A stretch of DNA of 36,927 nucleotides from a virus (taxonomy: Duplodnaviria > Caudoviricetes). The stretch is from IMG/VR virus record IMGVR_UViG_3300016476_000336, positions 1 through 36,927 of that record; one strand, 5' to 3'. Below, piece by piece: positions 12,105-32,376 of this stretch. Under the pieces are notes generated by a model. It was not told the origin of the DNA and did no database searches. It saw only the letters and a program-made list of their open reading frames with translations. The stretch's first letter is position 1; every line of letters begins with the position of its first letter. The position numbers were made by a program, and so were the translations under genes.

Positions 12105-13362
12105 GGGCCAACTCCGCTAAAGATTTTTTGTCGTGTAGCGCACTAAATATGCGTTCGTCAATAGTTTTATTGCACATGATGACGTAGCACCACACGTCGC
12201 GCGTTTGGCCGCTACGATGCAGACGGCCCACAGTCTGCTCGAATAGTTCAAGCGACCACGGCAGCGACAGGAAGATGATCTTGTTACCCCCGAACTGAAG
12301 GTTAAGCCCGTGCCCGGCGCTTTTGGGGTGAATCGCCAGCAGCGGGATCTTGCCCTCATTCCAGCGCTCGACGGCGTTGGGCTCGTCAATCGTGCTGACG
12401 TTAAACTGGCGCTGTAACTCGGCTAGTTCTTCTTTGTAATTGTAGACGATGATGGTATTGTCGCGCTGGTTTTCGTCGATGATGTCGCGCAACGTGTCGA
12501 ACTTCTGGCGGCCAAACCAATGAGCAACGCCTTGGCTATCATAAGCGAAGCCGGAGGTGAGCTGCTGAAGTTTGTTTGTGACAGCAGCCGCTGTCGCAGC
12601 CGTGATTTCCTCATGCACGTATTCCTTCTTCATGTTTTCATACGGTTCGCGGTCGTCCAGATCGCAGCGCATTTCGACGACGTGCAGCGGCGGCAGCTTG
12701 TCTTTATACTCGCCAGGCTCTAGCACGTAGGTTGCCGGCTTGATCGTTTCCATGACTTTTGGCAGCGCTTGCGGCAGCGGTTCCCATTGGCCGTAATCGC
12801 GGTTCACGCAATAGAAATATTGCTGTAAAAACGCGCCCTTGCTGCGGCCCAGCAGCGTCTGATCGACGACCTTGCACTGGCCAAACACGTCTTCTAAACC
12901 GTTGGACGTGAACGATCCTGTGCAGCCCCACCGGATCTTGAACTGGTCAAGGATTTTAAGAAGATGTTTAAACCGTTTGCCGCTCGGGTTTTTCAGCCGC
13001 GTCAATTCGTCGAACACAACGCCTGTGAAGCCTTTGGGGTCGATAGAAGGGATATTGTCGTAGTTGGTTACAACAATGTCGGCATCGCTTTCGAACGCTT
13101 TCTTACGCTGCGCGGGCGTTCCAACAGCGACGGCAATGTCAGTGTCAGGAGCCCATTTGCGCCCTTCGACCGGCCAAACGTCTGTGCAAACGCGCTTCGG
13201 CGCTAGCACAAGCCAACGGTCGCAATGGCCATGCACAAGCATCTCGGTCATGGCGGTCAGCGTAATTGCGGTCTTGCCAGCGCCAACAGGCGCTAAGATC
13301 ATGGCGCGGTCGCGGGAGAACAGGAAATCAGCGGCGTCGTGCTGGTATGGTCGGAGATCCAT
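12073..13362 (-). CDS. SNF2-like SF2 helicase
   Basis: LRPYQ Q-motif, GAGKT Walker A, VFDELT Walker B, SAGHGLNLQ, QTVGRLHRSGQ. Confidence 0.92.
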   Translation of the reverse strand: MDLRPYQHDAADFLFSRDRAMILAPVGAGKTAITLTAMTEMLVHGHCDRWLVLAPKRVCTDVWPVEGRKWAPDTDIAVAVGTPAQRKKAFESDADIVVTNYDNIPSIDPKGFTGVVFDELTRLKNPSGKRFKHLLKILDQFKIRWGCTGSFTSNGLEDVFGQCKVVDQTLLGRSKGAFLQQYFYCVNRDYGQWEPLPQALPKVMETIKPATYVLEPGEYKDKLPPLHVVEMRCDLDDREPYENMKKEYVHEEITAATAAAVTNKLQQLTSGFAYDSQGVAHWFGRQKFDTLRDIIDENQRDNTIIVYNYKEELAELQRQFNVSTIDEPNAVERWNEGKIPLLAIHPKSAGHGLNLQFGGNKIIFLSLPWSLELFEQTVGRLHRSGQTRDVWCYVIMCNKTIDERIFSALHDKKSLAELALAELSDVESA

Positions 13363-13616
13363 TTGTCAACCTCGTCTTTAGACCAAAGACAATCATAACT
13401 CTGATTTAACAACGCCATTTCACGCGCGAACATATCTTGCAGCGGCGACACTTTACCGCCGGGTCGCTTTAGTTCTATGAAGTGCGTCGTGCCATCCGGT
13501 AAACAAACGATCCGGTCGCTGACGCCGCGATTCGATGACGACACGAACTTATACGCGCGCCCACCGACTGATTTTACTCGTTTTACGAGATACGCTTCAA
13601 TATCTTTCTCAAGCAT
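13299..13616 (-). CDS. VRR-NUC domain nuclease
   Basis: EKDIE.YL...GG.AYKFVS...GVSDRIV...FIELKRPGG..SPLQ. Confidence 0.88.
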   Translation of the reverse strand: MLEKDIEAYLVKRVKSVGGRAYKFVSSSNRGVSDRIVCLPDGTTHFIELKRPGGKVSPLQDMFAREMALLNQSYDCLWSKDEVDKWISDHTSTTPLISCSPATAP

Positions 13617-13818
13617 GTTTCGCCCACTTAATCACCGCGATACATTGGTCTACGTTAAACTGCTGTATGTGGCATTGGTCTTTGGTCATGCCCATGTGCC
13701 TCGCCAACGCCCGATAAGCCCGCGTTCGTGACATGCGGCCAGACTTCCAAAGCGCGTCAAAAACATCGTGCGCTACGGCACGCGCGGCCCCTGTTCCGAT
13801 GTGGTGTAGGTCAAACAT
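13609..13818 (-). CDS. Small protein resembling the C-terminal part of DUF3268
   Basis: AHDVFDALWK...SRTRAY..LA..MG....CHI..F..DQC; the N-terminal Cys knuckle is absent. Confidence 0.6.
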   Translation of the reverse strand: MFDLHHIGTGAARAVAHDVFDALWKSGRMSRTRAYRALARHMGMTKDQCHIQQFNVDQCIAVIKWAKHA

Positions 13819-13828
13819 AAAAAAACTA

Positions 13829-13858
13829 TTGACACACTCACTGCAAATTGTCTAGTGT
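13829..13858 (+). promoter_or_regulatory. Sigma70-like promoter for the replication operon, in the divergent intergenic gap
   Basis: TTGACA (13829-34), 18-nt spacer, TAGTGT (13853-58); A-tract upstream. Confidence 0.55.
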
Positions 13859-13880
13859 CGAATCACTGAAAGGTAAGATA

Positions 13881-14975
13881 ATGGCCCATAGCAACATCGT
13901 CGGCGGTTCGACCGCTAAACGTCTCATCAACTGCCCCGGTTCGCGCGCGTTAGTCGCGACAATGCCGGAAAAGCCCACAAGCAAATACGCCGAAGAAGGC
14001 TCGCGTTTGCATGACGCTATGCACATGATTTTGTCGCATGGTGCGAAGGTTGAAGATTATCCTGACAATGAGAAGTTAATCCTTGCACTTGACTCATTAA
14101 ACGAGATCGACCCTAATAATGAGCTTGAGTTTGCCACGGAGGTAAATGTCCATTTCAATGACTTTCTTGCCGGAGTTTACGGTTCTTGCGATCTCGCTGG
14201 CCGTATACGCAATCGTGCGATAGTCCTCGACTGGAAGTTCGGGGATGGCGTTGCGGTAGACGCCGAAGAAAATGAGCAGCTTATGTTCTATTGCGCCGCA
14301 GGTATGCGGACGGAACAACTGCGTTGGGTGTTTGAAGGCGTTGACGAGATCGAACTTATCATCGTGCAGCCGCCGTATGTGAAGCGTTGGCTGACGACGC
14401 CCGGTCGCATTAAGGCGTTCGAGCGCACGCTGTATGACGCCGTGCAGGCATCGTTCAAGCCTAATGCGCCGTTTAACGCTGGCGATCACTGCCGTTGGTG
14501 CGCAGCCAAGCCTGTCTGCCCGTTGCTGACGGGTCAGCTTGAGCGCGCGGTTGCGACGAAGATTAAAGGTATAGACCCGGAGAAAGTTGGCAATGCTTTG
14601 GCGTTTGCGATCCTTGCGGAAGAATGGGCTAAAAGCGTCCGTGAGCTGGCCCAGACGATGTTGGAAAACAACGCGGCCGTGCCGGGGTGGAAACTTGTCC
14701 CAAAACGGCCCACTAGACAGTGGGTTAATGATGAAGGAGCGCGCGAAGCTCTTGAACAAATGGGACTGGATAATTCGGAATTGATGGTGACGGAACTGAA
14801 ATCACCGGCGCAGATTGAGAAGGTGCTGAAGAAGCATAAGCTCGAACTGCCGGCAGATCTTGTCGTCGCTGTCTCACCAGGTCAGACAATCGCACCGGAG
14901 TCAGATCCGCGTCCGGCAGTCTTGACAATAGGCAAGAACATTTATTCTGCCTTCTCTAAACTCGAGGTAAAGTAA
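13881..14975 (+). CDS. DUF2800-like PD-(D/E)XK exonuclease (Cas4-like fold)
   Basis: HS.IVGGSTAKR...CPGS, AEEGS.LH, GSCD, VLDWKFGDG, QLMFY, HCRWC..K..CP; AAGGT RBS favours the ATG at 13881. Confidence 0.85.
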   Translation: MAHSNIVGGSTAKRLINCPGSRALVATMPEKPTSKYAEEGSRLHDAMHMILSHGAKVEDYPDNEKLILALDSLNEIDPNNELEFATEVNVHFNDFLAGVYGSCDLAGRIRNRAIVLDWKFGDGVAVDAEENEQLMFYCAAGMRTEQLRWVFEGVDEIELIIVQPPYVKRWLTTPGRIKAFERTLYDAVQASFKPNAPFNAGDHCRWCAAKPVCPLLTGQLERAVATKIKGIDPEKVGNALAFAILAEEWAKSVRELAQTMLENNAAVPGWKLVPKRPTRQWVNDEGAREALEQMGLDNSELMVTELKSPAQIEKVLKKHKLELPADLVVAVSPGQTIAPESDPRPAVLTIGKNIYSAFSKLEVK

Positions 14976-15604
14976 TGTCTAATATTGTAAAGTTCGGCAA
15001 CGCCAATCTCCCCACCGCTGCGTCTCTGGCTGAGTCGCTTCGCAAACTCGACACCGACGCTTCTGTCGGTTCGGTTATCCTGAAAATGGATAAGACCGGC
15101 CATTGGGTTTACGGCGCGGATCAGACTGAGACCGACAAAGACGGACGCTGGGCGGTCAATCCGTTCTCGTTTGTCCACGGTTTCATCGCGTGGGGCGAAG
15201 GCGAGGTGCTTGGCGAGAAGATGGTGTCTATTACGGAGCCGCTTCCCGAACTGGACGTGCCCCCGCCTGGCGCGAAGCGCGGGTGGGAGCCCCAGGTTGG
15301 CATGAGCGTCAAGTGCCTTGATGGCGAGGACGCTGGCGTTGAAGCGCGTTACACTGTCACATCTGTTGGCGGTAAGCGCGCGATGCACCAGCTCGCCATG
15401 AAGGTCGCCGATCAGGTCGAGAAAAATCAAGACGCGCCTGTGGCCGTCGTGAAGCTCGGCTCGGAATATTATCAGCACAAATCCTATGGCCGCGTCTACA
15501 CTCCGGTGTTTGATGTGATCGAATGGATCTCGCTCGACGGTGCGCCGGCTGAGACTACGGTCGATGGCTCTACCGCAGACACCGGTCGTCGTCGTCGCGG
15601 CTGA
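14975..15604 (+). CDS. Putative single-stranded DNA-binding protein
   Basis: Sits between the exonuclease and polymerase genes; aromatic beta-rich core (WVYGAD, WAVNPFSFVHG, YQHKSYGRVYTPVF). Function inferred from position. Confidence 0.55.
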   Translation: MSNIVKFGNANLPTAASLAESLRKLDTDASVGSVILKMDKTGHWVYGADQTETDKDGRWAVNPFSFVHGFIAWGEGEVLGEKMVSITEPLPELDVPPPGAKRGWEPQVGMSVKCLDGEDAGVEARYTVTSVGGKRAMHQLAMKVADQVEKNQDAPVAVVKLGSEYYQHKSYGRVYTPVFDVIEWISLDGAPAETTVDGSTADTGRRRRG

Positions 15605-15613
15605 TAATAGGGA

Positions 15614-15643
15614 GGGCGGGGGCTAACAACCCCCGTCTTTTTT
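15614..15643 (+). terminator. Intrinsic terminator
   Basis: GGGCGGGGG-CTAACAA-CCCCCGTCT stem followed by a T-run. Confidence 0.75.
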
Positions 15644-15644
15644 C

Positions 15645-16193
15645 ATGGCATTTGATATGAAGGCTTGGAAAGAAGCCAACCGCGAAAAAATTAAACTCTA
15701 TTCGGTTCGAGCGCGTTTGAAGAAAAAAGGTCTGCTTTCGCCTGAGACGGTCGAACAAATGATGGCGGAACGTGCGGCCAAGAAAGCCGCGTCTGCCGAA
15801 CGTGCTAAACAGCGTAAGCGTGAATGGGCGGCAGCTAACAAAGAGCGCAAGAACGCGCGCTATCGGGAGCGCTATCACAGCGACCCTGAGTTTAGACGCC
15901 GTGAGATCGACAAGCGTATGAAGAGTTTTGACCGGGAAGCGCACAGCGCTGAACGTCAAGCCGCTAGAGAGGCCAAGAAAGCGGCTAAAGAGTTAGCAAA
16001 ACAAGCGGCGAAGGAAAGCCGTCAACGGGCAAGAGAGGAAGACAGACTAAAAAAGAAAAAGCTAGAGAACGCCAAGCGGCACGCGCTGGCGATGGAAAAG
16101 GCGGCGAAAATCGCGCCTAAACCTAAGAAAGTAACGATGAACACAAGGAAGCCGGGAAGGCTTGTAGCACTAGCGGGATGGATGGGATGGTAG
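15645..16193 (+). CDS. Highly basic, charged helical hypothetical protein
   Basis: K/R/E/A-rich, with two W.xANxE(K/R) motifs. Confidence 0.65.
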   Translation: MAFDMKAWKEANREKIKLYSVRARLKKKGLLSPETVEQMMAERAAKKAASAERAKQRKREWAAANKERKNARYRERYHSDPEFRRREIDKRMKSFDREAHSAERQAAREAKKAAKELAKQAAKESRQRAREEDRLKKKKLENAKRHALAMEKAAKIAPKPKKVTMNTRKPGRLVALAGWMGW

Positions 16194-16390
16194 CTCTTAA
16201 TACTAATCGTCGATTCAAAGATCCTTCAGAATTGACTGAGTATGAGAAGAAGATTTTAGCCTTGCGCCGCCAAGGACTCACATGGAGACAAATCGCCGAA
16301 AAGATTGGCAATATTAGCCCACGTTCAGTCAGCGTCAAATGGGTCGTCATTAAAGAAAAGCTGGAAGCGATGGGCGTGTCGCCGCATTGA
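16178..16390 (+). CDS. HTH DNA-binding protein (LuxR/sigma region 4-like)
   Basis: LTEYEKKILALRRQGLTWRQIAEKIG; start may be the ATG at 16187. Confidence 0.7.
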   Translation: MDGMVALNTNRRFKDPSELTEYEKKILALRRQGLTWRQIAEKIGNISPRSVSVKWVVIKEKLEAMGVSPH

Positions 16391-16402
16391 AGGAGACGGG
16401 GG

Positions 16403-16645
16403 ATGAGTGAAGTAGCGACGCATTTGCTGCAAAAGCGGATTGAGCAACTTATTTACGAACGCGACTTAGCCCGCGCAGAGAACGAGAAGCTACGTGCGGC
16501 GTTGAAGCCGTTCGCTGCATACGTCGATCAGCCGACAAAGATTTACGAACATGAGGGCGTCCGCGTGGCGTTAGTCGATCAAGACGTTTTGCGGCGGTTA
16601 TGTCGCGCCGCAGCCGCCGCATTGAAGGAGACGGGGGATGAGTAA
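16403..16645 (+). CDS. Mosaic small protein 1 (RAENEKLRAALKP / AAAALKETGDE family)
   Basis: AAGGAG RBS supplied by repeat A; shares the coiled-coil and C-terminal motifs with its neighbours. Confidence 0.75.
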   Translation: MSEVATHLLQKRIEQLIYERDLARAENEKLRAALKPFAAYVDQPTKIYEHEGVRVALVDQDVLRRLCRAAAAALKETGDE

Positions 16646-17033
16646 GAAAGATAACGTGGCTTATAGCTTGCAGACGCTATGTCATCCTGCGTCTGAGTTT
16701 TTGGCTGACGGACAGCGATTGACACTTTTCATTAAGCGAGGAAATGAAGCCGCCTCCGAAATCCTCCGCCTCCGCGCAGAGAACGAGAAGCTACGTGCGG
16801 CGGCTAAAGAGGCGCAAGTCACTTTCGACGCAACATGGAGTGAGGCCGACCTATTGCGGGTTGAAAATAATGAGCAGCGTCAGGAAATCGAGAAGCTACG
16901 GGCGGTGTTGAAGCCGTTTGCTGACATTGCAGCGCAATTCGAATTTGCTGACGACAATGAAGGTATCTCCGGCGTTTTGCTTGGCGAACTACGCGCCGCC
17001 GCCGCCGCATTGAAGGAGACGGGGGATGAGTGA
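16638..17033 (+). CDS. Mosaic small protein 2 (two coiled-coil motifs)
   Basis: Same RBS repeat; contains EILRLRAENEKLRAA and EIEKLRAVLKPFA; ends AAAALKETGDE. Confidence 0.75.
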   Translation: MSKKDNVAYSLQTLCHPASEFLADGQRLTLFIKRGNEAASEILRLRAENEKLRAAAKEAQVTFDATWSEADLLRVENNEQRQEIEKLRAVLKPFADIAAQFEFADDNEGISGVLLGELRAAAAALKETGDE

Positions 17034-17298
17034 AGTAAAAGAGGCCTATGACGAATTTGTAGCGTCATTAGGATACGACAATATTGCTGACGTTGCAGAA
17101 GAAATCCTCCGCCTCCGCGCAGAGAACGAGAAGCTACGTGCGGCGTTGAAGCCGATAACAGACATAAAAGCGTTTACCTGTATTTTCGAATGGACGCCGG
17201 TAGAAGCATTGCGCGACGATGAAAAAGTGCATGTGAAGCTAACAGGTGCGCAGATTAAGGCCATGCGCGCAGCCGCCGCATCGAAGGAGACAGAATGA
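17026..17298 (+). CDS. Mosaic small protein 3
   Basis: Same RBS repeat; EILRLRAENEKLRAALKP; ends AAAASKETE. Confidence 0.75.
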   Translation: MSEVKEAYDEFVASLGYDNIADVAEEILRLRAENEKLRAALKPITDIKAFTCIFEWTPVEALRDDEKVHVKLTGAQIKAMRAAAASKETE

Positions 17299-17399
17299 CT
17301 TATGCTGAAATACTAACTGATACGTCACTGTATCTTTTTTTCTACGGCTTCGGCCTTATGTCGGGGATCTTTGTGTCATGGATCGAATTGAGAAAGTAA
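17295..17399 (+). CDS. 34-aa single-pass membrane peptide (not in ORF track)
   Basis: MTYAEILTDTSLYLFFYGFGLMSGIFVSWIELRK; AAGGAG RBS from the fourth repeat A copy; ATGA coupling. Confidence 0.6.
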   Translation: MTYAEILTDTSLYLFFYGFGLMSGIFVSWIELRK

Positions 17400-17974
17400 G
17401 CCGGTATATTCCGGCGGTGTTGCCAACCCGCGGCGCAGGTGGAGAGGCCAGCGACAACGGCAGCACAGTGCGTCACATGCTCTTGTCCATTCCTCGCGTT
17501 AAGTTTTTAGAGGGCGGCGAGACTGAACATTATCACAAGTATAAAGTGCTAGAGAACGAGCCTGTTATTATTAGCCCGTCCTACAGCGACAAATGGTGCG
17601 AGGCCGTCAAAGCCGAACCGCTGACCGAACGTGAGCTGTTGGTAGAGAAGATGGTCAATGACGGCGCGTCGCGTAACGCTATAGCCGACCACCTCCACAT
17701 GGCGCGCGGCGCAATCGCTAACCTGCTGTCACGCATACGCGTGAAGCGCGCATATCAGGCGCTAAAAAGCTGCCTGCTGATCGGCGCGGCGATCTCCGTG
17801 TGGGATGGCCCGAACGGCCCTTATGCGGTCGAGCTGAGCTATCCGAACGAATCATTCTATTACACGCCGCAGGGCATGATCTCTGCACCCAAAGTCGGAA
17901 ACATGACCGTCTACAACGGACCTAATGGAGAGTATCTTGGCTATCATCTGGGTGGACTTCGAGACGCGGAGTGA
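17378..17974 (+). CDS. Protein with a central LuxR-like HTH and an unrelated C-terminal segment
   Basis: PLTERELLV..MV.DGASRNAIADHLHM....IANLLSRIRVK, followed by a GPNG-repeat beta segment. Confidence 0.6.
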   Translation: MDRIEKVSRYIPAVLPTRGAGGEASDNGSTVRHMLLSIPRVKFLEGGETEHYHKYKVLENEPVIISPSYSDKWCEAVKAEPLTERELLVEKMVNDGASRNAIADHLHMARGAIANLLSRIRVKRAYQALKSCLLIGAAISVWDGPNGPYAVELSYPNESFYYTPQGMISAPKVGNMTVYNGPNGEYLGYHLGGLRDAE

Positions 17975-19871
17975 GTGCGATCTGAAGGTGGCGGGCGTAT
18001 ATAACTACGCCCGTCATCCGTCTACGCAGGTCATTTGCATGTCATGGGCGCGCGATGGCGGCGACGTGCAAACTTGGACACCGCAAGAAAAGTTTCCTGA
18101 GAGAATTTTTCGCGCTGGCGAACAAAACATACAGATCCGCGCGCATAACGCCGCGTTTGAACGTCTGATTTTTTGGCATGTGTTAGGGATACACATACCA
18201 CTAGAGCAATTCTATTGCACCGCTACGCAGGCGCGGGCGAACTGTGCGCCAGGGAGCTTAGAAGATGTCGGACGTTTTGCCGGTCTTGACATGCGTAAAG
18301 ATCATCGCGGTGCAGCGCTTGTGCGCGCCTGCTGCGTGCCGCCTTATCGTTACGATCTCATACCCGAACTGATAGAATATTGTGAACAAGATGTGCGAAC
18401 AATGCGCGCCGCCAGTAAAGCCATGCGGGAACTGACGCAGGAGGAACTAGATGACTACCATGTTAACGAGCGCATCAATGATCGTGGCGTTCTTGTTGAC
18501 CGGGATCTATGCCGCGCGGCGGTCAAATACGCGGCTACAGAACTTCAAGAGATCGAAGCTGCGGTTAAAGAAATCACTAACGGTGCGGTCACGACTGTTA
18601 GAAGCCCTACAATGCGATTGTGGGTGCAAGAACGACTCGGCCCTGAAGCCGTCAAACTCATGGAGCGCGACGGTCGCCAGTCCGTTGACAAAACCGTCAG
18701 GGCTAACCTTTTGGCCATAGACAACCCTGAAGAGGTGCCTCCTGATGTCAGAGAAGTCATACAATGCGCGGACGATCTTTGGGCGTCTTCTGTTGCTAAA
18801 TTTGACCGTCTTGCTGGTCTTGCTTGCGATGATGGCCGTGTCCGTGGTGCGTTCGTTTTCGCTGGAGGATCAGCCACAGGCCGCGCCAGCTCCTACGGCG
18901 CTCAAGTCCACAACTTCACACGTAAATGCGCCGATGACCCGGAAGCCGTGCGACATGCAATGGTTCGGGGTCATGCAATCGTGCCTCGTTACGGACGACG
19001 CGTCACGGACGTATTGCGAGGTATGCTTCGGCCTGCCCTGATACCGGCTAAAGGTAAACAGTTCGTCGTCGCTGACTGGTCAGCCATCGAGGGTCGTGTG
19101 AACCCGTGGCTGTCCGGTCGCGGTGAGGATAAGTTACAGGCGTTCCGCGACAAGCTAGACCCCTACATCGTCAACGCTGCCGCTACGTTCCGCGTCAAAT
19201 ACGAAGAGGTCAATAAGTCGCAGCGCCAGGTCGGCAAGGTGCAGGAACTGGCGTGCGGCTTCGGTGGCGGCGTTGGAGCCTTCGCTGCGATGGGCCGCGT
19301 CTATGGGTTGACGCTACCGGAGGATGAGGCACGACGTATGGTTGACGCCTGGCGTCGCGCTAACCCGTGGTCGGTTCCGTTCTGGTCTGATCTTGAGGTT
19401 GCATACACCCGCGCTCTGCGCAATCCCGGTAAAGTATTCGAGGCTGGCAGGATAAAATACTTGGCCGACAAGCAGCACCTTTGGTATGCTCTGCCTTCCG
19501 GCCGCGTGCTTTGCTACCCGAACGCCAAGTTTGAGAAAGATGGTTCGATCTCCTATTCAAAGGCGTCTTGGAAGCCTGCGGCAGATGCTAAAGAGTGGCC
19601 GCGTGGTCGGCTTTGGCGAGGGCTTGCGTGCGAGAACGTCACACAAGCGACCGCCCATGATCTTTTACGTGAGGCTCTGCGCCGTGTTGATAAGTTGGGC
19701 CTTGAGGTCATTTTACATTGTCACGATGAAATTGTGCTGCAATGCGATAAAGAGAAAGCGCTTGACTCAAAAGACAAATTAGAAGAGATTATGTGTACGC
19801 CTCCTGACTGGTGCGATAATTTACCCTTAGAGGTCGAGGCGTCAATTATGGATCGGTACGGAAAGGGTTAG
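17925..19871 (+). CDS. DNA polymerase family A with 3'-5' exonuclease
   Basis: Exo motifs DFETRS, AHNAAFER, YCEQDV; motif A VADWSAIEGR; motif B RQVGKVQELACGFGG; motif C HCHDEIV. Confidence 0.95.
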   Translation: MESILAIIWVDFETRSECDLKVAGVYNYARHPSTQVICMSWARDGGDVQTWTPQEKFPERIFRAGEQNIQIRAHNAAFERLIFWHVLGIHIPLEQFYCTATQARANCAPGSLEDVGRFAGLDMRKDHRGAALVRACCVPPYRYDLIPELIEYCEQDVRTMRAASKAMRELTQEELDDYHVNERINDRGVLVDRDLCRAAVKYAATELQEIEAAVKEITNGAVTTVRSPTMRLWVQERLGPEAVKLMERDGRQSVDKTVRANLLAIDNPEEVPPDVREVIQCADDLWASSVAKFDRLAGLACDDGRVRGAFVFAGGSATGRASSYGAQVHNFTRKCADDPEAVRHAMVRGHAIVPRYGRRVTDVLRGMLRPALIPAKGKQFVVADWSAIEGRVNPWLSGRGEDKLQAFRDKLDPYIVNAAATFRVKYEEVNKSQRQVGKVQELACGFGGGVGAFAAMGRVYGLTLPEDEARRMVDAWRRANPWSVPFWSDLEVAYTRALRNPGKVFEAGRIKYLADKQHLWYALPSGRVLCYPNAKFEKDGSISYSKASWKPAADAKEWPRGRLWRGLACENVTQATAHDLLREALRRVDKLGLEVILHCHDEIVLQCDKEKALDSKDKLEEIMCTPPDWCDNLPLEVEASIMDRYGKG

Positions 19872-19873
19872 CC

Positions 19874-20368
19874 GTGGTTACGCATGAACGGCTTGTGGAA
19901 TTATTTATCTACCTTAGAAGATCCGGCGATTTTATTCGTCGGATTTCTACGGGAAGAAATGGGTGCCACAAAGCAGGAGAATATGCCGGTACAATTCAAA
20001 ATCATGGCTATCTTGTCATATCCATTGATAAACGTCGGTATATGGCTCATCGGTTAGCGTGGTTTTATGTGAATGGAACTTGGCCCAAAGGAGACTTAGA
20101 TCACATTAACGGCAACAAATTAGATAACCGTATATCTAATCTGCGTGAGGCAACACGTAAACAAAATATGCAAAATGTGCGTCGGCACAAACACAATACA
20201 AGCGGGCATAAAGGCGTCGCTTGGCATCCACAGCGTAATAAATGGCGCGCGTATATATTCGATAGCTATCGGCAAATCCATCTTGGTTTGTTTGACTTTA
20301 AAGAAGCGGCATTTGCAGCGCGGTTAAAAGCCGAAAAACAATACCATAGCCATAGGGTGGAATCATGA
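19874..20368 (+). CDS. HNH homing endonuclease with AP2-like C-terminus
   Basis: YMAHRLAW...DHINGNKLDNRISNLR...NTSGHKGV.W...KWRAYI...HLGLF. Confidence 0.9.
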   Translation: MVTHERLVELFIYLRRSGDFIRRISTGRNGCHKAGEYAGTIQNHGYLVISIDKRRYMAHRLAWFYVNGTWPKGDLDHINGNKLDNRISNLREATRKQNMQNVRRHKHNTSGHKGVAWHPQRNKWRAYIFDSYRQIHLGLFDFKEAAFAARLKAEKQYHSHRVES

Positions 20369-23126: not shown

Positions 23127-23336
23127 CTAGCCAGTGTGGCACGTTCCGTCCCCGAAGTAAAATAAATCCAGCCGCCGGACGATCTCTTGCTCCGTGTAGA
23201 CGGGATGCTCTTGCGACGTGGGCTCTAGTCGCCGCCAGAACGCCCATAGGGGCGGGTTTATGACGTAGCATGGGGCGTCGCGCGGCCAGTCGGGCACGAC
23301 GGCCCCATATTCTTCGAATTGCTCTTCAAATGTCAT
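23127..23336 (-). CDS. Hypothetical protein
   Basis: 69 aa; ATGA-coupled to the HNH gene. Confidence 0.6.
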   Translation of the reverse strand: MTFEEQFEEYGAVVPDWPRDAPCYVINPPLWAFWRRLEPTSQEHPVYTEQEIVRRLDLFYFGDGTCHTG

Positions 23337-23806
23337 TTTGTTTCGCCCTTCAATCGCGCGGCTTTAGCCTCGTCTATTGTGTGGTAGTAGCCAAGATATT
23401 TTAACACGCCATTTATTCTGATTTTGGCTTGCCAGCGTTTTTTGCGCCGGTCGCCGTGATAGGTAATCCCCGGAACGCCGTATTTATTATCGCGGCGTAG
23501 CGGCATGTTTTGGCAATTTTCAACGTGAGTCGCCAATCGCAAATTGGCTATTCTGTTGTCTGTTTTATTGCGGTTTATGTGGTCTATTTCATCAGGTGGC
23601 CAAACCTCATGAACATAGAACCAAGCAAGCCTATGTGCGCGGTATGCTTTGCAGTCGGCGCATATTTTCAGATAGCCTTTTTCGGTTAACGTGCCGGCAA
23701 TTTTGCCGACACGCTGAAATCGTCCTTTACCGTTTACGCGCCATGTAAATTGGCCCGTTTGCGGATCATACTGTATGATCTGTTTTAGTCGTTCATGTTC
23801 TATCAT
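23333..23806 (-). CDS. HNH homing endonuclease with AP2-like C-terminus
   Basis: YDPQTGQFTW...YRAHRLAW...IDHINRNKTDNRIANLR...WQAKI...YLGYY. Confidence 0.9.
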   Translation of the reverse strand: MIEHERLKQIIQYDPQTGQFTWRVNGKGRFQRVGKIAGTLTEKGYLKICADCKAYRAHRLAWFYVHEVWPPDEIDHINRNKTDNRIANLRLATHVENCQNMPLRRDNKYGVPGITYHGDRRKKRWQAKIRINGVLKYLGYYHTIDEAKAARLKGETK

Positions 23807-29409: not shown

Positions 29410-31547
29410 TGGCAAGTGATGACGTAATTGCCGCCGGCAAAGTCTCCGACAATCCAGACGATGACCGTCTGGCCACCATGCGCCATCGGTTTACGGTGGC
29501 GATGGCGGCTTACAGCGACAGTCGTGAAGACGAGCTGGACGACTTACGGTTTATGGCTGGAAGTCCCGATAATAGTTGGCAATGGCCAGCAGACGTGCTG
29601 GCGACACGCGGCGCGGTGCAGGGCCAGACGATCAACGCGCGGCCATGCCTGACGATTAACAAGCTGCCGCAGCACGTGCGGCTCGTGACCAACGAGCAGC
29701 GCCAGAACCGCCCAACCGCCCGCGTCATCCCGGCAGACGAGAACGCCGACCCCGAGGTCGCGGAGATTTTCGACGGCATCGTGCGGCACATCGAGTATAT
29801 GTCGGACGCCGACGTGGCCTACGACACCGCCTGCGACAACCAGGTCATTTACGGCGAAGGCTATATCCGCATTCTGACGGAATACACGAAAGAAGATTCG
29901 TTCGAGCAGGACATCCGCATCGCTCGCGTCCGTAGCAGCTTTAGCGTCTACATGGACCCGATGATCCAGGATCCGTGCGGTCAGGACGCGAACTGGTGCT
30001 TCATTACGGAAGACATTCCGAAGCGTGAATACGAGGATATGTATCCAGACGCGACGCCTGTGACCGGCATGATGTCGCAAGGCGTGGGCGACCAGACGCT
30101 CAGCATGTGGGTCAGCCAAGAGACGGTGCGCGTCGCGGAGTATTTTTACGTTGAGACGCGCAAAGCGACGCTTAATCTCTATCCGGACAACATCACGGCG
30201 TTCAAAGGCACGCCAGAGGACAAGCGGCTGATGGCTGCCTACGGCAAGCCGCTGCGCAGCCGTGAGAGCGACCGTAAGCAGGTCAAATGGATTAAGACCA
30301 ACGGTTATGAGGTGCTGGAAGAACGCGAGTGGGCGGGCAAATACATCCCTGTCATTCGCGTCGTCGGCAATGAGTTTGAGGTCGACGGTCAGATCTATAT
30401 TTCTGGCCTTGTGCGCAACGCTAAAGACGCGCAGCGCATGTATAACTACTGGGTCAGCCAGGAAGCGGAGATGCTCGCTCTGGCCCCTAAAGCGCCATTT
30501 ATTGGCTATGGCGGCCAGTTCGAGGGCTACGAAACCAACTGGAAGACGGCCAACACGAACAACTGGCCGTATTTGGAGGTCAACCCGGATGTTACTGACG
30601 GAGCCGGAAACCCGCTTCCCTTACCTGAACGCGCCCAGCCTCCGATGGCTCAGACGGGCCTTATCCAAGCCAAGATGGGCGCTGGGGAAGACATTAAGTC
30701 GACCACTGGCCAATACGACAGTAGCATTGGGGCGACTTCCAATGAACGGACGGGTCGTGCGATCCTCGCTCGGGAGCGGCAAGGCGACACGAGTACTTAT
30801 CATTATGTCGACAACCTGGCGCGCGCGGTAAAATACGTCGCCCGTCAGCTCGTGGATCTTATACCGAAAATCTACGACACGCAGCGCGTCGCCCGCATCA
30901 TCAATGTTGAGGGCGAAGTCCGCATGGCGAAGATCAATCCTTCGCAGCCAGAAGCGGTGCGCAAGATCGTCGACGAGCAAGGCATAGAGATCGACAAGAT
31001 CTACAACCCGAATGTCGGCGTCTACGACGTGCAAGTGTCCTCTGGCCCCAGCTACATGACGCGTAAGCAGGAGGCTATGGATACGATGGGCCAGATCCTG
31101 CAAACCAACCCCGCGCTGTGGGGCGTCGCAGGCGATCTGTTTGTCAAGAACATGGACTGGCCAGGCGCAGAGACGATGGCCAAGCGGTTCGAGAAGATGC
31201 TTGATCCGAAAGTGCTTCAAGATACGGACGAGTCGCCGGAAGCGCAGGCTATGCGTATGCAGATGGAGCAGATGGCGCAGGCTATGGAGCAAACCAACGC
31301 TCAGATTCAGCAGCTTATGCAGAGCTATGAGATGAACAAGCTCAAGATAGATGAGTTTAACTCTCAAATAAAAGCTTTTGACGCCGAAACTAAACGCATA
31401 AGCGCGGTCCAAAATTCATTGAATCCTGAGCAATTGCAAGATATCATTCAGGGGACAATAGCGGCTGCTTTGGACACTGGCGATCTTATCGGCCAAATGC
31501 CTAGCGGCCCTAATCTCAACCCTAGAATGTTGCCGGAAGCCGAATAA
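29409..31547 (+). CDS. Portal protein, P22-like
   Basis: 712 aa; DDLRF..G..WQW, RPCLTINKL, GLVRNAKDAQRMYNYW, LIPKIYDTQR, GPSY.T.KQEA; helical C-terminal barrel. Confidence 0.92.
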   Translation: MASDDVIAAGKVSDNPDDDRLATMRHRFTVAMAAYSDSREDELDDLRFMAGSPDNSWQWPADVLATRGAVQGQTINARPCLTINKLPQHVRLVTNEQRQNRPTARVIPADENADPEVAEIFDGIVRHIEYMSDADVAYDTACDNQVIYGEGYIRILTEYTKEDSFEQDIRIARVRSSFSVYMDPMIQDPCGQDANWCFITEDIPKREYEDMYPDATPVTGMMSQGVGDQTLSMWVSQETVRVAEYFYVETRKATLNLYPDNITAFKGTPEDKRLMAAYGKPLRSRESDRKQVKWIKTNGYEVLEEREWAGKYIPVIRVVGNEFEVDGQIYISGLVRNAKDAQRMYNYWVSQEAEMLALAPKAPFIGYGGQFEGYETNWKTANTNNWPYLEVNPDVTDGAGNPLPLPERAQPPMAQTGLIQAKMGAGEDIKSTTGQYDSSIGATSNERTGRAILARERQGDTSTYHYVDNLARAVKYVARQLVDLIPKIYDTQRVARIINVEGEVRMAKINPSQPEAVRKIVDEQGIEIDKIYNPNVGVYDVQVSSGPSYMTRKQEAMDTMGQILQTNPALWGVAGDLFVKNMDWPGAETMAKRFEKMLDPKVLQDTDESPEAQAMRMQMEQMAQAMEQTNAQIQQLMQSYEMNKLKIDEFNSQIKAFDAETKRISAVQNSLNPEQLQDIIQGTIAAALDTGDLIGQMPSGPNLNPRMLPEAE

Positions 31548-32023
31548 TGGACCAGAAAACGGCTCTTGAGCTATTTGAATACCGTGATGGCGCGCTGTTT
31601 TGGCGAAAATCGCCGCGTCGAGGTATTCGCAAAGGTAGCATGGTCGGCTGCAAAACTAACAGATATGTGCAGATAAGGCTAAAAAATAAGACTTATTATG
31701 CGCATCGAATTGTGTATTTAATGTTTTACGGCCACATCCCTGTTGAAGTGGACCATATAGATTGCGATAAGTTAAACAACAAAATTGAAAATCTACGCGC
31801 CGCCACTCGCGTCGAAAATGGCGCAAATCTACCTCTTAGGAAAGATAGTAAATCCGGCGTTAAAAATGTCTGTTGGCATAAAGCGGCTAACAAATGGCAA
31901 GTTTCAGTTAAAGCTAATGGTAAACGACATAATTTTGGGCTATTTGATGATCTTGAACTAGCCGCGCTTGTCGCGTCTGAAGCCCGTGACAAATATCACG
32001 GCAAATTTGCGAGGACGGCATGA
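31547..32023 (+). CDS. HNH homing endonuclease with AP2-like C-terminus
   Basis: YYAHRIVY...VDHIDCDKLNNKIENLR...SKSGVKNV.W...KWQV...AR.KYHGKFA. Confidence 0.9.
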   Translation: MDQKTALELFEYRDGALFWRKSPRRGIRKGSMVGCKTNRYVQIRLKNKTYYAHRIVYLMFYGHIPVEVDHIDCDKLNNKIENLRAATRVENGANLPLRKDSKSGVKNVCWHKAANKWQVSVKANGKRHNFGLFDDLELAALVASEARDKYHGKFARTA

Positions 32024-32376
32024 GCTGTGCAGATCTGATCGGACACCTGTTTTTGGCGCGCGATGTCACTCATTCTGTGCATCTGAACACGCGTTCTTAC
32101 GCAAAACATAAGGCGCTTGGCGGGTTTTATGAGAAAATCATCGACTTGGCGGACGATTTGGCTGAAGCCTATCAGGGCAGATATGGTCTAATCGGGCCAA
32201 TTACGCTTCATTCGGCCAAAAAGACCAATAATGTCGTCGAGTTTCTTGAAGATAGCCTGAAAGAGATCGAGGAAGCGCGCAAAGAGTATAAAGACGATTC
32301 GGCGCTTCAAAACATCATTGACGGCATTGTAGACTTATATCTGTCTACGTTGTATAAGTTGAAATTCCTAGCCTAA
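32020..32376 (+). CDS. Ferritin/Dps-like four-helix protein (DUF5856-like)
   Basis: H..HLNT.SYAKHKAL..FYE....LADDLAEAYQG...LQNIID.I......TLYKL. Confidence 0.7.
   Translation: MSCADLIGHLFLARDVTHSVHLNTRSYAKHKALGGFYEKIIDLADDLAEAYQGRYGLIGPITLHSAKKTNNVVEFLEDSLKEIEEARKEYKDDSALQNIIDGIVDLYLSTLYKLKFLA

Follow-up and report, generated by a model that had tools for sequence, protein, structure and literature searches.

Variable modules joined at two kinds of short coding linker in the replication operon of an uncultured podophage, and their re-partnering in other phages

In the window, the whole analysed stretch of 36,927 nucleotides, which is a near-complete (98%) record of an uncultured phage, three translationally coupled small genes appear to be composed of variable modules joined at two kinds of short coding linker, and modules of the same array are found with different partners in other phages. 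In the account that we consider probable, co-infecting phages would exchange these modules by ordinary homologous recombination at the linkers. At linker A, which comprises the end helix of one gene, its stop, and the SD and start of the next, whole genes differ between copies, and at linker B, made of mid-gene coiled-coil heptads, it is gene halves and middle pieces that differ; the DNA of both linkers is nearly the same in different phage backbones, and every junction preserves the frame. Exchange and gene conversion would keep the linkers alike (exact blocks of 29-60 nt), the enzyme being either host RecA or the neighbouring phage exonuclease together with the SSB-like protein. Selection would then retain those products in which the frame is intact and heptad register and translational coupling are kept, and the resulting predicted coiled-coil proteins with a variable acidic loop would probably bind host targets.

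Layout of the array in the window

The window phage, a podophage, has head and connector genes of P22-like type and also encodes tail fibres, a DUF2800 exonuclease, polA, a primase and a helicase. The runs containing the stretch are metagenomes from freshwater, wastewater, estuary and soil, and the phage is aquatic. The array sits in the replication operon between the SSB-like gene and polA, in the order exonuclease, 209-aa protein, 182-aa protein, HTH gene, three array genes, 34-aa hydrophobic gene, 198-aa ORF and polA (Table 1). An HTH-like gene precedes the arrays of L001, L036 and L245 as well. The 198-aa ORF (17378-17974) looks like a fusion; in L085 we find a separate 129-aa HTH protein and a 70-aa secreted-type protein.

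Table 1. Positions of the linkers, the array genes and the neighbouring operon genes in the window
Feature	Position	Strand	Composition or remark
DUF2800 PD-(D/E)XK exonuclease	13848..14975	+	candidate resection partner
209-aa OB-fold, SSB-like protein	14975..15604	+	upstream anchor of the slot; candidate strand-annealing helper
70-aa LuxR/GerE-type HTH gene	16178..16390	+	directly upstream of the array
Linker A, copy 1	16380..16408	+	stop of HTH gene (other frame), SD-like GGAG, ATG of gene 1
Array gene 1, 80 aa	16403..16645	+	v1 N-module (16409-16470), B, v2 C-module (16516-16603), A tail
Linker B, copy 1	16471..16515	+	RAENEKLRAALKPFA
Linker A, copy 2	16604..16643	+	RAAAAALKETGDE-stop; overlaps SD and ATG of gene 2 (8-nt overlap)
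Array gene 2, 131 aa	16638..17033	+	v3 (16644-16757), B, middle module v4 (16803-16883), B', C-module v5 (16926-16991), A tail
Linker B, copy 2	16758..16802	+	45 nt identical to copy 3
Partial linker B'	16884..16925	+	EIEKLRAVLKPFAD
Linker A, copy 3	16992..17031	+	tail of gene 2, SD and ATG of gene 3
Array gene 3, 90 aa	17026..17298	+	v6 (17034-17100), B, C-module v7 (17155-17267), A' tail
Linker B, copy 3	17101..17154	+	repeat B
Degenerate linker A'	17268..17298	+	tail of gene 3; overlaps at ATGA with the 34-aa membrane-type gene, the last of the array
Family A DNA polymerase	17925..19871	+	downstream anchor of the slot

The initial annotation had described a repeat A with three exact copies and one degenerate copy, and a repeat B of 31-45 bp with three exact cores and one partial copy. 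Both descriptions hold. The 28 nt of A recur exactly at 16381-16408, 16616-16643 and 17004-17031, and the 31-nt core of B, encoding RAENEKLRAA, recurs exactly at 16471-16501, 16772-16802 and 17115-17145, each with 0 matches in 100 shuffles; compared copy against copy, the exact lengths are 29, 35 and 31 nt for A and 31, 40 and 45 nt for B. The mapped coordinates bear out the proposed order A-v-B-v-A-v-B-v-B'-v-A-v-B-v-A', and the genes overlap at linker A by 8, 8 and 4 nt. The seven v segments (62-114 nt) are as dissimilar as had been claimed: the longest DNA match between them is 10-11 nt, and they are not simple tandem duplicates. Identity of the repeats reaches synonymous positions, again as stated, the probability that all 10 codons are equal in three copies of the B peptide being 2e-9 under the codon usage of the genome. 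The reading of A as the end of one gene plus the SD and ATG of the next needs a small correction for the first copy, which is not read as AALKETGDE. Because the upstream HTH gene stops inside it (16388-16390) in another frame, the first copy serves as stop and ribosome-binding site only.

Module exchange in relatives and other phages

The slot was compared through a search anchored on the SSB and blind to the repeats, from which the best 80 of 598 confirmed loci were kept. Fifteen of these 80 have an SSB 91-98% identical to that of the window, and 11 are informative, L079, L087, L088 and L092 being too short to show the slot. Counted by eye, these 11 relatives carry from 0 to 6 array-type genes per slot (none in L083, one in L082 (= L084), L085 and L090, two in L078, about 2-3 in L089 and L091, four in L080 and L081, six in L086), and the v segments of the window occur in none of them. 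The slot of L091 also contains a 92-aa repeat protein rich in Gly and Tyr, surrounded by array-like genes whose linkers are of a divergent type. L036, retrieved through repeat A, has upstream genes at 84-92% DNA identity and two array genes, both different from those of the window, and array-type genes are present in L093 (SSB 72%). For 64 more distant loci (SSB 61-72%; 57 complete slots, 37 of them of at most 350 nt), a strict pattern finds no array, a pattern that undercounts, scoring 0 for L078 where two genes are seen by eye. From the comparison of slots we therefore consider the array to be variable, dispensable and limited to one clade of the window phage type. A fixed array was not found in these relatives, which differ in copy number and in content.

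Arrays are also found outside this phage type. The repeat searches yielded 68 contig groups with array genes after 3 chance groups had been dropped; L054, L056 and L060 were taken out before counting, and the chance matches dropped include 4 of 11 metagenome loci (L070, L074, L075 and L077) and most of the 61 loci from one repeat search. Several backbones surround the arrays. A window-type polA flanks those of 18 other groups; further arrays lie beside one of two different polA types, an AAA module, a helicase module or one of two terminase-type neighbours, where labels beyond the window's own genes are a motif reading of the flanking long ORFs. When 1.84 billion representatives were searched with a profile of 36 members, 192 clusters matched at E<=1e-10. 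The pattern that the initial annotation predicted, with the same repeats, other or reshuffled v segments and variable copy number, is thus present in metagenome relatives.

At linker A, whole genes change partners. The 111 unique A junctions include 14 C classes that continue into 2-7 different next segments and 17 downstream classes that are each preceded by 2-6 different C classes; the junctions form 4 cycles. L001 and L245 have 633 nt in common at 97%, which end exactly at A and are followed by divergent sequence; the shared blocks of L001/L245, L025/L061, L025/L034 and L080/L061 all terminate inside A or B, and L034 differs from L025 by an insertion at B. Swaps located at A occur even between different phage backbones. 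With these whole-gene swaps and 0-6 genes per slot, the proposed gain and loss of whole genes by A-A exchange is supported by the comparison of contigs; exchange is read here from assembled contigs, and k-mer contigs cannot show exact repeat-to-repeat deletions.

Two observations concern larger or fused products. Positions 3014-5100 of L080 are 96% identical over 2,090 nt to positions 3279-5368 of L061, a stretch that holds the AAA-ATPase module of another phage type. In L080, a window-type SSB (97%) runs through an A linker into this L061-type module, a mosaic joint at the scale of the genome. The 204-aa protein P0044 is a read-through of the A tail into the next gene, that is, a two-gene fusion at linker A.

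At linker B, it is the halves of genes that change partners. The C-half of gene 3 recurs in 14 other proteins, where at least 13 different N-halves precede it and the switch lies at B; 13 of the 14 non-self matches carry it behind other N-halves, P0023 is one more, and the N-half in front of it in P0057 is one typical of L025-type phages. The C-half of gene 1 likewise occurs in 14 other proteins, none of which has the N-half of gene 1, while P0071 has this exact N-half with a different C-half. For gene 2, the N-half occurs with other C-halves in P0002 and P0003 and the C-half with another N-half in P0004. Contigs of independent runs show a different N-part joined to B-v2-A (X10, record 2), B-v7-A followed by 220 other letters (X6, record 20), and v3 preceded by 939 unlike letters (X3, record 18). 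Two of the window's seven modules, v4 and v6, have no match elsewhere, and the assembled contigs of runs X5-X7 and X10 do not cover them. The claim that B-B exchange swaps N- and C-terminal halves in frame is supported by these changes at B across contigs, with the frame kept.

We assessed the position of these changes in a DNA set of 122 genes (105 types from 68 contig groups), using shared blocks of at least 75 nt. All 153 internal block ends in the 105 gene types keep the reading frame. Linker zones defined from the protein contain 103 of the 156 unique breakpoints, where 67 are expected (0 of 100,000 simulations). The remaining 53 lie outside the linker zones, many of them at a third linker or a few codons off. 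The location of breakpoints at B may come from the survival of products that are in register, and not from a preference of crossover. For the 97 types with both tags we count 69 N classes and 76 C classes, which form 95 combinations. These include one four-way cycle, which divergence alone cannot produce. Sixteen N classes have 2-6 C partners and 9 of 10 recurring C classes have 2-6 N partners, counts that are partly a matter of construction, near-identical genes having been collapsed beforehand.

A second linker dialect (ARAAYLGEKE; ARIAELEAALKPF) and a third linker (AADALEAQARRIAELE) are seen in L025, L034, L080 and related loci. Recurring middle modules go with the second and third linkers, and both dialects are mixed within one array.

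Alternative explanations and the likely mode of recombination

The geometry of the array is cassette-like and shared blocks stop sharply in the linkers, as in an integron-like system in which a site-specific recombinase cuts at A and B. The 98%-complete record, however, contains neither a tyrosine recombinase (integrase) nor a serine recombinase (resolvase), none of five repeat stretches has a significant hairpin, fold or inverted symmetry (z 0.93 to -0.96), and there are several linker sequences of varying exact length without one invariant core; we regard this explanation as extremely unlikely. That the reshuffled combinations are chimeras of metagenome assembly at the repeats is very unlikely. 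The linkers are common to many phages in complex samples, depth piles up at them, and the module order of the window is not bridged by a single piece, but exact matches between module-unrelated types do not exceed 60 nt, less than the length of a read, 24 genes are present in identical form in 2-7 contig groups, and single contigs from independent runs hold C-modules of the window with other neighbours. In run X1, a possible source, at least 8 contig pieces tile 15900-17700 without a mismatch or an alternative joint, at a depth of 18-28 outside the repeat and with only these seven modules among the contigs listed. Misassembly is accordingly unlikely for the window itself, although no X1 piece spans the whole array and the module order therefore lacks independent proof.

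A possible, if rather unlikely, explanation is that the pattern is a by-product of tandem paralogues with two conserved helices, in which A and B are protein motifs plus a ribosome-binding site, alike by recent duplication, and ordinary recombination survives where frame and heptad register are kept, with no selection for shuffling. All family members share the scaffold ALKPF...acidic loop...G(D/E)LRAA, whose helices may be structural, and there are several linker dialects (A1/A2, B1/B2 and the third linker), both of which fit this explanation. Against it stands the synonymous identity across contigs, far over codon expectation. Linker codons are identical in 84-95% of cases, where 33-37% is expected; the loci were mostly retrieved with repeat patterns, so the values for A1, A2 and B1 are inflated, but B2, never a search pattern and the only linker free of search bias, still has a codon identity of 0.835 against 0.326 expected. 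The rare codon CTA, with a genome use of 5%, is used in 7 of 8 cases in B1. In addition, A is retained at the first junction though outside the peptide frame, and identical linkers stand beside modules that have nothing else in common. These three kinds of evidence indicate homogenisation at the DNA level; they do not separate linkers selected for exchange from linkers alike as a consequence of it. The array could also be neutral or selfish filler that spreads by recombination without a function of its proteins, and its dispensability would agree with this, given its absence in L083 and, by the strict pattern, in 57 of 57 complete distant slots. However, the variable modules have a pN/pS of 0.17 over 263 pairs with the linkers masked, and their unique differences are 198 synonymous versus 81 non-synonymous (neutral share 0.22), from which we conclude that the modules are under purifying selection and encode a selected protein. 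The coupled frames are intact and the acidity of the loops is consistent (49 of 51 C-loops are acidic in one count and 108 of 115, from 65 classes, in another; their length is about 26-28 residues), so that filler is decidedly unlikely.

The reading that we prefer is exchange by general homologous recombination. Among 5,290 pairs of gene types without a shared module, exact matches reach 23 nt in 1,320 pairs, 31 nt in 473 and 45 nt in 20, the longest being at most 60 nt. The minimal pairing length is given as 31-34 bp for RecA and 23-27 bp for Red-beta (PMC3945230). Since the exact lengths of the linkers lie in this minimal range and no site-specific enzyme was found, we infer homologous recombination, which, judging from the sequences, is the likely engine of the swaps. 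The description of the system as recombinase-free is therefore apt as regards a dedicated site-specific recombinase but not as regards general recombination. Genes of the RecT, ERF and Rad52 families are absent from the record, in which the exonuclease and the OB-fold protein would be candidates for resection and annealing. The model of the 209-aa protein has an OB fold, with phiC31 gp3 as the best match (Z 7.9, rmsd 4.7, 145 aligned), and a TG1 factor related to phiC31 gp3 is a working SSB (PMC11795197). We call the protein SSB-like with moderate confidence on the basis of this predicted fold; a PDB sequence search with it gave nothing, and T7 gp2.5 is not among the 50 matches listed for the fold search. 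Its match to PHROG 9528 (14975-15604) is labelled nucleotidyltransferase, a label that is probably wrong for this protein and also for its homologues in Caulobacter phages.

Known systems, predicted proteins and genome context

The closest parallels are published cases of shuffling at short conserved sequences. In T4-type phages RB49 and phi1, promoter-early stem-loop (PeSL) cassettes are short conserved repeats in a plastic region that act as sites of homologous recombination, where small genes of unknown role are added, dropped or replaced with no dedicated recombinase (PMC2839356). Gain, loss and replacement of genes bounded by repeats is likewise what we see among relatives of the window phage. 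Mini-circles released by excision are another mark of PeSL cassettes, and the material compared for the array consists of assembled contigs. PeSLs, however, are intergenic and consist of a promoter and a stem-loop, whereas the A and B repeats contain neither a promoter nor a stem-loop terminator and the array shows no excess of promoters or terminators and no hairpin (4 sigma-70-like sites in 13300-18200 against 2.9 expected, all on the minus strand and none in A or B). The array linkers, unlike PeSLs, code for protein and couple translation, a second linker swaps halves in frame, and the linkers are common to different phage backbones.

The boundary or linker sequences of modular theory were reportedly treated by Clark et al. 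in 2001. Short conserved crossover points at gene boundaries between different phages are part of modular phage evolution (PMC2839356, PMC3029335), and mosaic junctions between phages in our data also map to a short conserved sequence at gene boundaries, linker A (L080/L061). The array differs in that its linkers are repeated many times per array and an intragenic tier is added.

The initial annotation had likened the genes to ead/ea22. Lambda Ea22 is mosaic, with a variable N part, a central coiled coil and variable, acidic C-terminal domains (PMC10834534), and the array genes are likewise small early-region accessory genes with a variable N part, a central coiled coil and unrelated acidic C parts. 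The nearest named ESM Atlas clusters include Ead_Ea22 at 0.83-0.84, which we treat as a lead only. The likeness in architecture stands, but the Pfam profile PF13935 matches 0 of 36 aligned members at E<=0.01 and nothing in the record. Ea22 is a single gene with a shared N part and coiled coil, whereas array genes vary in both halves and their C part is a loop closed by a constant helix; the window record has no integrase, and the site is a replication operon, not the lambdoid exo-xis region that is typical of Ead/Ea22 genes with their pro-lysogenic effect.

Integron cassettes are promoterless small genes between repeats that are gained and lost as units. The array resembles them as a cassette-like series of small genes between repeats and differs in having no tyrosine integrase and no attC-like hairpin, and in exchange that also takes place inside genes.

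In the literature, covered mostly through open texts, we found no description of the array family or of a two-tier array of coding linkers. The earlier claim of an undescribed system goes too far: the shuffling of modules at linkers is published for PeSLs and boundary sequences, as are mosaic coiled-coil genes for Ea22. What is new is a two-tier linker kit that is coding throughout, recurs within arrays and is common to several phage backbones. The array offers a clearly mappable case of phage genes assembled below the level of the gene out of common parts, its crossover points can be specified at base resolution, and it makes the linker hypothesis of modular evolution directly testable with sites of 30-60 nt. 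One shared kit of parts gives many predicted coiled-coil proteins. In one search, 47 of 48 protein matches were single-member 90% clusters; this explains why many small phage 'ORFans' stand alone in protein databases, being old parts in new combinations.

The array proteins are predicted coiled-coil proteins with a variable acidic loop. In the model of gene 3 (pLDDT 70, pTM 0.35), helices at residues 2-14, 20-46 and 74-88 surround a low-confidence loop, the long helix spanning B and the helix after the poorly predicted loop running through A; a homodimer prediction (residues 16-90, two copies, 15-row alignment) has a median of 0.37 where the mark is 0.42 and is given no weight either way. Searches of PHROGs, Pfam, PADLOC, cultured phages (tblastn) and BFVD gave nothing specific for the array genes: PADLOC returned weak matches only, the BFVD fold search with the gene 3 model nothing at E<=0.001, and cultured phage records only chance-level matches (blastn of the array, tblastn of gene 2 and P0032), one of them a 34-residue match with E 0.9 to a gene annotated as Ead/Ea22-like. 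The proteins would be dispensable early accessory factors; that they are small, acidic and hypervariable, and that their genes are dispensable and lie in an early replication operon, suggests a role in host interaction. That they are host-takeover or anti-defence binders is a tentative assignment, to which we give somewhat less than an even chance, and the acidic modules form a ready list to screen for anti-defence activity. A further-reaching reading, speculative and doubtful, is that phages of one aquatic host group share an antibody-like library, in which the constant two-helix scaffold is the linker, dozens of interchangeable acidic loops and N-modules each bind or inhibit a host defence or regulatory protein, and the identity of the linkers is itself selected to keep the library exchangeable across unrelated lineages.

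Homologues of the SSB at 25-30% identity are mostly from alphaproteobacterial phages, a weak hint from sequence similarity at an alphaproteobacterial host. A search of GTDB genomes with a B pattern gave 0 matches, and four weak coiled-coil matches in actinobacteria were judged to be chance.

Elsewhere in the window there are three HNH endonuclease genes of one PHROG family (phrog_99), located after the polymerase (19874-20368), in a reverse-strand block (23333-23806) and directly after the portal gene (31547-32023). A gene at 32020-32376, among the head and tail genes, matches a family labelled 'starvation-inducible transcriptional regulator' (phrog_858).
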